From assembly GCA_000002445.1 (NCBI GenBank), contig CP000071.1, positions 2,272,001 to 2,336,000 on the forward strand: a DNA stretch of 64,000 bases, written 5' to 3'. This DNA is from Trypanosoma brucei (taxonomy: Eukaryota). A model generated the notes under the pieces. That model searched no databases. It was not told the origin of the DNA and saw only the letters and a list, made by a program, of their open reading frames with translations. Of the stretch, positions 26,201-64,000 are shown piece after piece (position 1 is the first letter of the stretch; every line of letters begins with the position of its first letter). The translations under genes were made by a program, and so were the position numbers.

Positions 26201-26394
26201 TCCTCAATATTGTGAATTGCCGCCGCCGACCTGTCCTTCAATTCCTTTTCACATTTCTGTGTAACTGCTCGACGGGTTTTGTGGAGATGTGCGCCCATTT
26301 GACGGTCTCAACTAAGCATTGAGCCGCCCCTCGAGTACGCAATCTCCTTTACACCATACGTAATGCTGCAATTTCTTCTTATAAGTCCCTGTTG

Positions 26395-26453
26395 CTTACA
26401 GTATTGTTGTCTATTATCATTATTATCATTATTCTCTCATTTCTCTTCTTTAA
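26395..26453 (+). promoter_or_regulatory. polypyrimidine tract plus AG: probable spliced-leader trans-splice acceptor for the first adenylate cyclase gene (same element repeated before every copy)
   Basis: CT-rich run cttacagtattgttgtctattatcattattatcattattctctcatttctcttctttaag, ending in AG about 35 nt upstream of the MASFMRL start codon. Conserved upstream of all eight copies. Confidence 0.4.
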
Positions 26454-26488
26454 GACTTACGAATTCCTCAAGTCAAGTCACCAGTGTT

Positions 26489-60785: not shown

Positions 60786-61056
60786 TTCGGAAGGACATTT
60801 ACTACATTGCGACTGGACCGTCGAATTATTGATGACGAAGATACGAGTGTTTCTTGCAGTGATGGGAGTTCCATTGGTGCAGTTCTCAGTGATGCCGCTT
60901 ATCAGGCCGTTGCTTTTATTGAAGCACTACTTGGTGCATTCCCTACTGCGCAGCGTAAGAAATTACTTATGCCATTTTGTAACCGATGGGGAGTTTCGGC
61001 GCCTTATAATGTTTCTGATACGTGGGATGCAACCACGTGCCATAATGTTACAGTCA
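60786..61056 (+). pseudogene. duplicated 3' coding fragment upstream of copy 8
   Basis: Same junction structure. Carries the RLDRRIIDDEDTS variant seen in copy 6. Confidence 0.85.
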
Positions 61057-61201
61057 CTTGTGTGTAATTGAATTTCAACTGCACTCTCTTCTGCTCCCTT
61101 TCGTGCCCTTACTTTATTGTTGTCTATTATCATTATTATCATTATTCTCTCATTTCTCTCCTTTAAGACTTACGAATTCCTCAAGTCAAGTCACCAGTGT
61201 T

Positions 61202-64000
61202 ATGGCTTCCTTCATGCGTCTTGTTACTCCACTTGGCGCTGCAGTGGCTTGCAGTCATCTCCTCATGGTTGTGTTACCGCTGCTGTTACTTATTCCTGGT
61301 TTATGTGCTGATAAAGACTGTAACAGCAGTGGTAAAGTGTCAGTGAAAGTGCACAGTTTGTTGTACAGCTCTAAGATATCAAGTAAAATCTATGAACCCG
61401 TCATTGCTGGTTTCAATGCCTCGCTACATGCGCATAATGATGATTTACCGGCAAATGTGTGCACAAAGGTTGAGCTCGTGCACGTTGTGAGTGGTGGGAA
61501 TCATATGAATACTATTGAGACGATGATTGGGGAGGGTGAAGAAAATAGTAATGAACTGCCCATTGTGCTGGGACCTTTTGGTGATGAGACTACTCTCCAT
61601 CTCACCTCGAAACTTGAGAAGTTAAAGGTAGTGGCCTTTTCTCCCTTTACTGGATCTTCGGATGTGCGTGTGTGGAAAAAGAATCTGTACTTCCTTACGG
61701 CATCGCCTGTTGCAGAGGTGCTTGCACTAATTCGTTATGCTGTGAGTCAATTGAGGCTTCAGCGACTGGGTTTTATGTACCTGAAGGGTGTGTTTTATGG
61801 CGATAAGGAGTACGAGCTGACACTTAAGGTAATGTCGATTATGGGCCGTAAATTGTGCGGTGTTTTCGAATTAGACAGCTCTACTGATAGAAGGGCTTCT
61901 GATGATGATTTTGAGGCTGCATGGAAAAGGTTTGCTCCCACGATGCCACAAGGTGTAATTGTGTTTGGTTCGCCAATTGAGGATACGAAGAGGTTCCTGA
62001 ATAGGTTATTGGGGAGCAATGAATTGAGAGGTGCTTATATATTAATTCCTTCCATGCTTCAATATGTTATCAAAAACAGTTGGCTGGATGATCTGCAATT
62101 ATTTAATTTGAATTTCTCGAAAGTGATAGTTGCGGGTCTGACTCCACTTGCAAATGATAATGAATACATAGCGGTACAGAAGTTTCAGACTGATATGGGG
62201 AAGTACCTGGGAAATAATGGAAAACTTAATGGTCACAATTATGAAAAGGGTCACTTCTACCAGCACAGTACTGACGGAGAATTGATGCTGCACGGATGGA
62301 TTGTGGGCGAGGTCTTGTGGCGTACACTGGGAAGTCGTGAATTACTGTGCAACCGTACAACTTACATGAACTCTCTGTACAACCAGCGTCGGTATGTTAT
62401 CGATGATCTTGTGATTGGTGATTTTGGTGGTGAATGTGAGGGGAAGGCTGGTCAGCGTGGAGCTGCATGCAAATGTAATCAAGGTGGAAATGTTGTTTAC
62501 ATGAAGAGGATGGGAACTGATCGGAATCTACATCCTGTGAAGGAGGGTGTAGTGACTCTCGCTTCATCACGCTGCTATACGAATCTCTTACAACTGTATG
62601 CCCCATTGAATGGTATAATGTTTCGACTAGAAGACAATCCATTGGCGCAGCGGATTACAGAGGAATATCGCGATGGCGCCTCCCTCGTTGTTGGAAAGGG
62701 CCAATTGGGTCAAGGTGATCGCTTCTTTTTGCATGAACTGAATTCGACATCGAGTGCGACAAAGCACAACATGTTAGAGGAGGTTAAAGAGCGTGTTGTG
62801 ACGGCTGTGTTCGGTGTTGTGGATGATGCGCTACTGTCGATGACAGATATGACATTTATTGATCCCATTCCTCTCAGTCCCAGGTTGAAACACCCCGGAA
62901 GGAATGCGTTGCATTTGTCTCCAACAATTGAGCAGCAGATTTTTGTTATAGTTAAAAACTTTGTTGTTAAAAATTCTTCAAGAAGAGTGCGTGCCATTGT
63001 TCGCGGTGGTGATGCACGTGGAATAAAATCTGTGCTACGAAGGACACTTTGGGTTTTTGGAAAGTTTTTGAGGGCAGTTGACACTATTAATGATGGTGAA
63101 AGTGTGAGGGGGATGTTGCATCGCAGTCGTGATTGTTTCGTTTTCGGTCTAACTGAAGCTGATATTACTGCAATTGCTGAGCATCTTGACAATCACAGGA
63201 AAGTGCGTGTATTTGTGTCGTTCTTCGATGTGGCACTGCTGTACAGTGAGTTTGTGAAGGTATTCAAAAAGCATCCGCAAGCTGCCGAGCGGTTACTATT
63301 CGCAACAAGCCTACCACACTGGGCAGACAACAATACGACATCCGAGACGGTTCAGGAATTTCACAGGGACGTGGGGATTCAGAGTAAATGGACTCCACTG
63401 GCGCTGCTTGGGTATGCGACTGCACGTGCAATGGAAAGTGTTGTGTCGCGAATGGGGCGTGTGAACTCAGAAGAGCTTATCAACGCCATATTCAGTCAGT
63501 CTGTAATTGTAGCGGATGACATGTGGTATGGACCCTTTGAGGACAGTTGCGCTAGCGGGTCCTCAGTGAAGGATTGCGCTGTGAATTACGGTGCGACACA
63601 TATTTCCGTGTGGTCCATGGCTCGTGTGTTGAATCCTTCCGTACCTCCTGTTAGCCAACCCGAAAGTCCATCGATACATTATTATAGTAATGGATTGAAT
63701 ATGACTGAGGAAGAATTTATTGGCACAATTGTGGGTACCATTTTGTGTTTGATAGCACTTGTGCTGATAGTAACAGTTATACGGAGGTTAATGCGTCTTA
63801 ACGCGCGGGATAACGAGAACGCACCAAAAGAATTGACAGACCCCGTAACGCTAATATTCACTGACATCGAGAGCAGCACTGCGCAGTGGGCAGCACACCC
63901 TGAGCTTATGCCTGATGCCGTTGCAACACATCACCGCCTAATTCGCACATTGATTTCCAAGTATGGATGCTATGAAGTGAAGACTGTTGGAGATTCTTTT
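61202..64000 (+). CDS. GRESAG4: receptor-type adenylate cyclase, copy 8: divergent paralog, partial (runs off the window end)
   Basis: ATG at 61202. Read by hand, the frame stays open through the divergent patches. No stop-terminated + ORF is listed in this interval, consistent with an open frame to base 64000. Divergent patches: CTKVELVHVVSGGNHMNTIETMIGEGEENSNE; VIVKNFVVKNSSRRVRAIVRGGDARG; RTLWVFGKFLRAVDTINDGESVRGMLHRSRDCFVFG; VTVIRRLMRLNARDNENAP at the juxtamembrane region. The catalytic domain start (LIFTDIESSTAQW...) is conserved. Confidence 0.8.
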   Translation, partial: MASFMRLVTPLGAAVACSHLLMVVLPLLLLIPGLCADKDCNSSGKVSVKVHSLLYSSKISSKIYEPVIAGFNASLHAHNDDLPANVCTKVELVHVVSGGNHMNTIETMIGEGEENSNELPIVLGPFGDETTLHLTSKLEKLKVVAFSPFTGSSDVRVWKKNLYFLTASPVAEVLALIRYAVSQLRLQRLGFMYLKGVFYGDKEYELTLKVMSIMGRKLCGVFELDSSTDRRASDDDFEAAWKRFAPTMPQGVIVFGSPIEDTKRFLNRLLGSNELRGAYILIPSMLQYVIKNSWLDDLQLFNLNFSKVIVAGLTPLANDNEYIAVQKFQTDMGKYLGNNGKLNGHNYEKGHFYQHSTDGELMLHGWIVGEVLWRTLGSRELLCNRTTYMNSLYNQRRYVIDDLVIGDFGGECEGKAGQRGAACKCNQGGNVVYMKRMGTDRNLHPVKEGVVTLASSRCYTNLLQLYAPLNGIMFRLEDNPLAQRITEEYRDGASLVVGKGQLGQGDRFFLHELNSTSSATKHNMLEEVKERVVTAVFGVVDDALLSMTDMTFIDPIPLSPRLKHPGRNALHLSPTIEQQIFVIVKNFVVKNSSRRVRAIVRGGDARGIKSVLRRTLWVFGKFLRAVDTINDGESVRGMLHRSRDCFVFGLTEADITAIAEHLDNHRKVRVFVSFFDVALLYSEFVKVFKKHPQAAERLLFATSLPHWADNNTTSETVQEFHRDVGIQSKWTPLALLGYATARAMESVVSRMGRVNSEELINAIFSQSVIVADDMWYGPFEDSCASGSSVKDCAVNYGATHISVWSMARVLNPSVPPVSQPESPSIHYYSNGLNMTEEEFIGTIVGTILCLIALVLIVTVIRRLMRLNARDNENAPKELTDPVTLIFTDIESSTAQWAAHPELMPDAVATHHRLIRTLISKYGCYEVKTVGDSF

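Follow-up and report, generated by a model that had tools for sequence, protein, structure and literature searches.

Our results identify the main element of a 64,000-nucleotide stretch of Trypanosoma brucei DNA (contig CP000071.1; "the window" means this whole stretch) as, almost certainly, the chromosome-internal GRESAG4 tandem array of T. b. brucei TREU927 chromosome 8, from Tb927.8.7860 onwards, a series of genes for receptor-type class III adenylate cyclases that evolve in concert. The structure of the array, the domain content and catalytic motifs of its products, its mosaicism, its two irregular junctions and its identity with the reference genome are established in this analysis. Copies 2, 3, 6 and 7 encode proteins that match TREU927 chromosome 8 entries exactly (accessions in Table 1), the CSD-domain gene upstream of the array (2966-4480) likewise encodes a protein identical to XP_847609 of TREU927, and the TREU927 protein accessions across the array run consecutively with gaps only at the pseudogene positions. 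The original prediction had placed the genes in the ESAG4/GRESAG4-like receptor-type cyclase family and proposed a proteome comparison as a check; the exact protein matches, the Pfam domains and an alignment to a solved catalytic domain all bear this assignment out. We further put forward, as a tentative model, that a gene relic in the spacers acts as a built-in recombination substrate that changes unit length and supplies the C-terminal region with variant codons, while the array also trades 0.4-0.8 kb tracts with a paralogue about 100 kb away and its terminal copy escapes homogenisation.

The array as such is real, correctly identified and already published, and in that sense known and ordinary. 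It has been annotated since the 2005 genome. Its recombination was analysed in 2007, when the array was scored for concerted evolution (PMC1855330), and in 2010, when Jackson et al. listed it as array 80a, "Adenylate cyclase, GRESAG4, Tb927.8.7860", with eight annotated copies in T. b. brucei and four in T. b. gambiense, and with positive recombination tests (PHI p<0.001; 10 breakpoints by the likelihood-ratio test; at least 11 by GARD) (PMC2854126). Rediscovery of the array therefore adds nothing new. What our analysis adds are the relic-driven junctions, conversion tracts in common with a dispersed paralogue and a corrected copy inventory, which comprises six intact genes together with a pseudogene, an orphan fragment and a divergent terminal copy. 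The role of the relic as a recombination substrate may be a fine structure that has so far gone undescribed.

Both the listing of open reading frames (ORFs) and self-BLAST place eight head-to-tail units on the + strand up to the end of the window (Table 1). In self-BLAST, stretches of 3-13 kb are 91-99% identical, far above chance. The start context ATGGCTTCCTTCATGCG is the same in all eight. Seven ATG-to-ATG distances can be measured (4947, 6205, 4975, 4970, 3688, 4967 and 4961 nt); five agree with the unit of 4.93-4.98 kb given in the original prediction and two (6205 and 3688 nt) depart from it. The further claim of eight consecutive genes of about 1265 aa holds for the number of units but not for the genes, of which only six are complete and open (1256-1267 aa), copy 5 being a pseudogene and copy 8 only partly visible. 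Among copies 1-7 the DNA of the coding sequences (CDS) is 95.8-99.2% identical, as against 90.3-91.4% between copy 8 and the other copies. The left edge of the array is exact: homology between the upstream regions begins at 26395, at the polypyrimidine tract, just where a clean start at about 26395 had been claimed, and the T. b. gambiense array has the same left edge (sequence L002, position 10033). From general trypanosome biology, the AG at 26453-26454 would be the trans-splice acceptor.

Table 1. Features of the GRESAG4 array in the window. All coordinates are window positions; each CDS and the copy 5 pseudogene begin at the ATG.
Feature	Coordinates	Strand	Basis or remark
Whole GRESAG4 tandem array visible in the window, eight units	26395-64000	+	Self-BLAST, upstream alignment, T. 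b. gambiense L002 10033
Polypyrimidine tract, AG and short 5' untranslated region (UTR); recurs ahead of each copy	26395-26488	+	Upstream-region alignment
Copy 1 CDS, 1256 aa, short C-tail type	26489-30259	+	GenBank XP_847613 has 1298 aa from ATG 26363
Copy 2 CDS, 1256 aa	31436-35206	+	XP_847614, exact; 99.2% nt identity to copy 1
Copy 3 CDS, 1267 aa	37641-41444	+	XP_847615, exact
Copy 4 CDS, 1265 aa, divergent N-terminal ectodomain block aa 55-145	42616-46413	+	Three N calls inside
Copy 5 pseudogene, frameshifted and 3'-truncated	47586-51139	+	Copy alignment
Copy 6 CDS, 1264 aa	51274-55068	+	XP_847617, exact
Copy 7 CDS, 1267 aa	56241-60044	+	XP_847618, exact
Copy 8 CDS, divergent, first 933 aa visible (window end)	61202-64000	+	Copy alignment
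264-bp relics	31022-31285, 37228-37490, 42202-42465, 47172-47435, 55827-56090, 60788-61051	+	Repeat alignment
Hybrid relic/CDS segments	35970-36232, 50860-51123	+	Repeat alignment
Orphan gene fragment, final 495 nt of a cyclase CDS with stop codon	35970-36464	+	+1258-bp duplication

The predicted proteins have the layout of receptor-type cyclases: a signal peptide, two periplasmic-binding-protein (PBP)-like modules, one transmembrane (TM) helix, a cyclase domain and a C-terminal tail. Pfam matches far over the cut-offs were found to PF25495 (aa 172-313) and PF25493 (aa 466-830), which are the PBP-like ectodomain families of trypanosomatid cyclases, and to PF00211 (aa 880-1089; 135.8-136.6 bits against a gathering cut-off of 21.9), while hydropathy identifies aa 6-35 as an N-terminal hydrophobic leader and aa 843-864 as the only TM helix. 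The signal peptide, large ectodomain, single TM helix and class III domain described earlier are thus all found. Residues 874-1106 align without gaps over 233 residues to the catalytic domain of GRESAG4.1 (1FX2; E=8.5e-120), and the alignment crosses the region of the trypanosome-specific catalytic insertion, the delta-subdomain described for trypanosome cyclases (PMC6027212), which is therefore present. In copy 3 the class III residues are D891 (FTD891IE), K930 and D934 (K930TVGD934), D1027 (GYD1027FYG), and N1034 and R1038 (N1034MAAR1038), which we take, by the canonical class III motif, to be the two metal-binding aspartates, the substrate-specifying lysine and aspartate (adenine) and the transition-state asparagine and arginine. 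Copies 1-7 all retain the catalytic motifs; the visible part of copy 8 includes the first two, likewise conserved. The motifs listed in the original prediction (FTDIESSTAQW, KTVGDSFM, GIHTG and SNMAARTES) are present with only two departures, GIHAG in copy 5 and SNMAARAES in copy 6.

Variation among the copies is unevenly distributed. The variable sites of copies 1-7 cluster at CDS nt 150-450, corresponding to ectodomain aa 37-150, and at nt 3300-3800 in the C-tail; the catalytic domain is nearly invariant. Informative sites fall into blocks common to differing sets of copies, making the copies mosaics of one another. A four-gamete test requires at least 25 exchange events (Rm), and the incompatibility of neighbouring sites, at 0.287, is below that of shuffled sites (0.366 +/- 0.013), with none of 1000 permutations reaching so low a value. 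Units on the same strand, high identity, mosaic copies and significant recombination tests together establish that the array is under concerted evolution; the earlier description of a recombination-prone locus is upheld by these tests, which agree with the published PHI, likelihood-ratio and GARD results (PMC2854126). Silent divergence (dS) is about 0.34 in the N-terminal block (aa 37-150) as against 0.02-0.04 in the remaining ectodomain, and the dN/dS of the block is about 0.8. Positive selection as the sole cause of the hypervariable block was rejected, since silent divergence is raised about ten-fold as well; the pattern is consistent with old haplotypes that, under relaxed constraint, have not been homogenised. 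Copy 8 has additional divergent blocks at aa 286-320, 581-650 and 781-870.

Every spacer carries a 264-bp copy of CDS nt ~3276-3539 (for instance 31022-31285, corresponding to the genic segment 29764-30027). The relic has sharp ends, is 93-97% identical to the genic segment and lies 1258 bp 3' of it, with the next ATG 150 nt beyond the relic. Sequence variants link relics and genes: CCGTCGAATTATTGAT in place of CCATGAGGTTGCTGAT is found only in copy 6 and in the relic at 60788-61051, these two have a run of 8 differences in common, and copy 6 also carries the relic-type TCGGCGCCTCGT. Variants held in common by relics and genes indicate that the relic joins in gene conversion with the coding region.

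Both irregular spacings are accounted for by exchange between relic and gene. After copy 2, the relic continues into a 495-nt gene tail that is followed by a second complete spacer, and self-BLAST finds blocks 34712-35969 and 35970-37227 to be 98.3% identical; the 6205-nt spacing is thus due to a +1258-bp duplication. The orphan fragment that it left is probably the annotated pseudogene Tb927.8.7880, which appears as a GRESAG4 pseudogene in a published listing (PMC3957582). At the copy 5/copy 6 junction, the copy 5 CDS passes through the 264-bp segment at 50860-51123 directly into the 3' flank of a relic and on into the polypyrimidine tract that precedes copy 6. The loss of about 1282 nt accounts for the 3688-nt spacing; the CDS is truncated at 51123, and the 3' frame of copy 5 ends ...NVTVTCV with a stop codon at 51137-51139. 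Upstream of this, copy 5 carries a 1-nt deletion in a G run (GGG to GG) near 48608, which leads to a stop at 48669-48671. The two junctions have opposite flanks, a relic 5' flank with a CDS 3' flank in one and a CDS 5' flank with a relic 3' flank in the other, and both hybrids contain internal switch points. The junctions would therefore be the two reciprocal product types of unequal exchange between relic and gene, and since both lie on one chromosome, two separate events would be needed; any order assigned to them is a reading of the sequence.

The right-hand end of the array can be placed with the help of T. b. gambiense, in which the sequence past the last assembly gap is the orthologue of copy 8 (96.6% identity). 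Repeat-unit homology there stops about 165 nt past the stop codon of this orthologue and is followed by a 1747-aa non-cyclase gene. The published tag series runs from Tb927.8.7860 to 7940 and then to Tb927.8.7950 (PMC2212663, PMC3957582), the last a non-cyclase gene. Because the terminal T. b. gambiense gene is copy-8-like, the tag series ends at Tb927.8.7950 and the accessions are consecutive, these data suggest that the array of TREU927 comprises eight units and no more, its end lying about 1 kb outside the window and copy 8 probably being the terminal unit. The original prediction of at least eight copies running past the window is correct in that copy 8 extends beyond the window, but the run beyond is probably confined to the rest of that copy and its short 3' flank.

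Three points weigh against parts of our reading. The T. b. gambiense (DAL972) array is broken by 100-N gaps (L002 12472-12571 and 23629-23728; L003 2160-2259 and 13317-13416), so that its four annotated copies are a lower bound not comparable with the TREU927 count, and it gives no confirmation of copy number. Which locus tag belongs to which copy is deduced from the numbering and the order of the accessions. Finally, this is a Sanger assembly with three single N calls in copy 4 (44058, 44096 and 44263), which suggest unsettled read differences between near-identical copies, and errors of assembly or base calling could in principle underlie the junctions, the copy 5 frameshift and the copy number. 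Taken to its end, the last point would make the +1258-bp block, the ~1282-bp loss and the copy 5 frameshift all artefacts in a true array of uniform, intact units. Gain and loss nearly cancel, the window holds 14 of the 264-bp segments, exactly the number for a uniform array, copy 4 has ambiguous base calls, the copy 5 frameshift falls in a short G run, and neither junction is seen in the comparable part of the T. b. gambiense locus. We nevertheless consider this explanation unlikely, as a misleading repeat of 264 bp is shorter than a Sanger read and single reads should cover each junction with its flanks. Moreover, the extra block is closest to its immediate neighbour (98.3%), as for a local duplication, both hybrids have clean opposite flank combinations with internal switch points, and the annotated pseudogene Tb927.8.7880 sits in the series where the fragment is expected.

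Exchange also extends outside the array. A singleton GRESAG4 gene (P0002; T. b. gambiense L001 10001-13804, chromosome 8) lies about 100 kb upstream, beside an amino-acid transporter array, and its product, 68% identical to the array proteins, is the closest paralogue outside the array. Compared with the copy 3 CDS, its DNA is 96-99% identical over nt ~1418-2200 and 97-98% identical over nt ~2666-3100, and 41-85% identical elsewhere. Over nt 1688-1950, copies 1-7 match the singleton and copy 8 does not. We read these tracts as evidence for ectopic gene conversion. The catalytic tract is also shared by a T. evansi cyclase (P0007).

The original prediction went further and saw in the array a likely source of donor sequence for the telomeric VSG expression sites, in which ESAG4 resides. 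This we regard as highly improbable: the family relationship is real, and exchange with at least one dispersed paralogue makes ectopic conversion conceivable in principle, but ESAG4 proteins and the array copies are only 47-48% identical, no ESAG4 match had a near-identical tract in common with the array (the best 60-aa window reaches 85-90%), which is too diverged for homologous exchange, and telomeric ESAG copies form their own clade, evolving apart from internal copies (Hertz-Fowler et al., PMC2567434). In agreement with an internal location, a search of the window for telomeric repeats (TTAGGG runs) and for triplet runs resembling 70-bp repeats returned nothing relevant, and next to the array, on its strand, lie a gene for a CSD-domain protein and conserved hypothetical genes, none of them cyclase-like or ESAG-like. 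The array thus neither lies in a telomeric expression site nor groups with ESAG4, to which its identity is 47-48% as against 68% to the internal paralogue; being chromosome-internal, it is GRESAG4 by definition.

Comparison with known systems sharpens this placement. ESAG4 has the domain architecture, the family and, presumably, the function as a flagellar receptor cyclase in common with the array, but is telomeric, flanked by ESAG3 and ESAG8 in the vicinity of 70-bp repeats, a VSG and the telomere, transcribed from an expression-site promoter and specific to bloodstream forms, while the singleton P0002 differs in being single-copy. GRESAG4.1 and GRESAG4.3 (1FX2 and 1FX4) agree with the array in family, architecture and the metal-binding, substrate-specifying and transition-state motifs; they are nonetheless other paralogues, the chromosome 8 proteins have an ectodomain and a C-tail of their own, and the crystal structures are theirs and not those of array copies. 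A counterpart in organisation is the tandem GRESAG4 array Tb927.4.4410-4470, which occupies the syntenic position in a 0.5-Mb duplication between chromosomes 4 and 8, with Tb927.4.4470/Tb927.8.7860 and, next, Tb927.4.4400/Tb927.8.7950 as duplicon pairs (PMC2212663). Mosaic copies are reported in both arrays (PMC2854126). Between the proteins that we took as those of chromosome 4 and the chromosome 8 copies, identity is only 50-57%, and no near-identical tracts were detected. Further afield, metazoan receptor guanylyl cyclases such as the ANP receptor (9BCV) also combine a PBP-like ectodomain, a single TM helix and a dimerising class III domain, but the sequence similarity is weak (E ~5e-4), nucleotide specificity differs and the trypanosome protein lacks a kinase-homology domain, no kinase-type family being among its Pfam matches.

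For copy 1, the GenBank start (XP_847613) lies 126 nt 5' of the start conserved in the eight copies. Because the extension (26363-26488) reads through the polypyrimidine tract and no corresponding ATG exists in the other copies, it is probably an annotation artefact and the true start is very probably at 26489; the reference start codon of this copy should be used with caution. The first T. b. gambiense copy (1358 aa) carries a similar N-terminal extension. Two kinds of ORF recur within the units, a 160-aa antisense ORF in seven of the eight copies (28000-28482, 32947-33429, 39152-39634, 49096-49578, 52785-53267, 57752-58234 and 62710-63192, - strand) and a 126-137-aa out-of-frame + strand ORF near the 3' end of six copies; both are most likely by-products of a repeated CDS and not genes.

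Upstream of the array, five + strand ORFs are found at 948-1997, 2966-4480 (the CSD-domain gene), 7962-11519, 14234-16756 and 18781-21810. Three of them have no Pfam match and the rest have the CSD domain or a weak match, and their common strand with the array fits a single polycistronic unit. An assembly gap of 60 N (6563-6622) lies in AT-rich intergenic sequence between the CSD-domain gene and the 1185-aa ORF at 7962-11519, and an ATC/ATT-rich tandem repeat (14145-14215; period 21-24, about 3 copies) lies directly 5' of the ORF at 14234. The 4.6 kb that separate the array from the last gene upstream of it (21811-26394; 31-37% G+C) contain no ORF longer than 174 aa and may represent a long UTR or spacer. 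A tblastn search of positions 1-26394 with a cyclase protein found no degenerate cyclase remnant, and Rfam (at gathering thresholds) and tRNA scans of the whole window found nothing.

By analogy with relatives, each intact unit would encode a receptor-type class III adenylate cyclase of the flagellar membrane, with an ectodomain of two PBP-like (Venus-flytrap-type) modules, a catalytic domain that makes cyclic AMP (cAMP) only as a homodimer, and a variable C-terminal tail. The relatives reside in the flagellar membrane, convert ATP to cAMP in a dimer-dependent manner, have low basal activity owing to weak dimerisation of their catalytic domains and become active when forced into proximity or under membrane or acid stress, and their ectodomain is thought to govern dimerisation via a ligand (PMC6027212). 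Their catalytic domain is also bound by CARP3 (PMC9481589). For the array itself, Tb927.8.7920, a member by locus tag and probably copy 6, was localised as a tagged protein to the flagellar tip in procyclic cells and belongs to clade 1.1 of the receptor-type adenylate cyclases (RACs), and RACs of chromosome 8 count among the family members that are translated more efficiently in bloodstream forms (PMC7719234).

In our model, the units are transcribed polycistronically from a single strand, each with its own polypyrimidine tract and AG, so that copy number would set dosage and variants would provide isoform diversity. Concerted evolution through unequal crossing-over and gene conversion would homogenise most of the gene, while the N-terminal ectodomain block and the C-tail would remain polymorphic and be reshuffled into mosaics, and relic-gene exchange would have produced one duplication junction, with the orphan tail at 35970-36464, and one deletion junction, in the copy 5/copy 6 spacer. 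The array may thus offer a concrete picture of how unit length is changed by an intergenic relic in a family that matters to the parasite, as relatives of these cyclases dampen TNF-alpha responses of the host, contribute to cytokinesis and govern migration within the tsetse fly (PMC6027212, PMC9481589).

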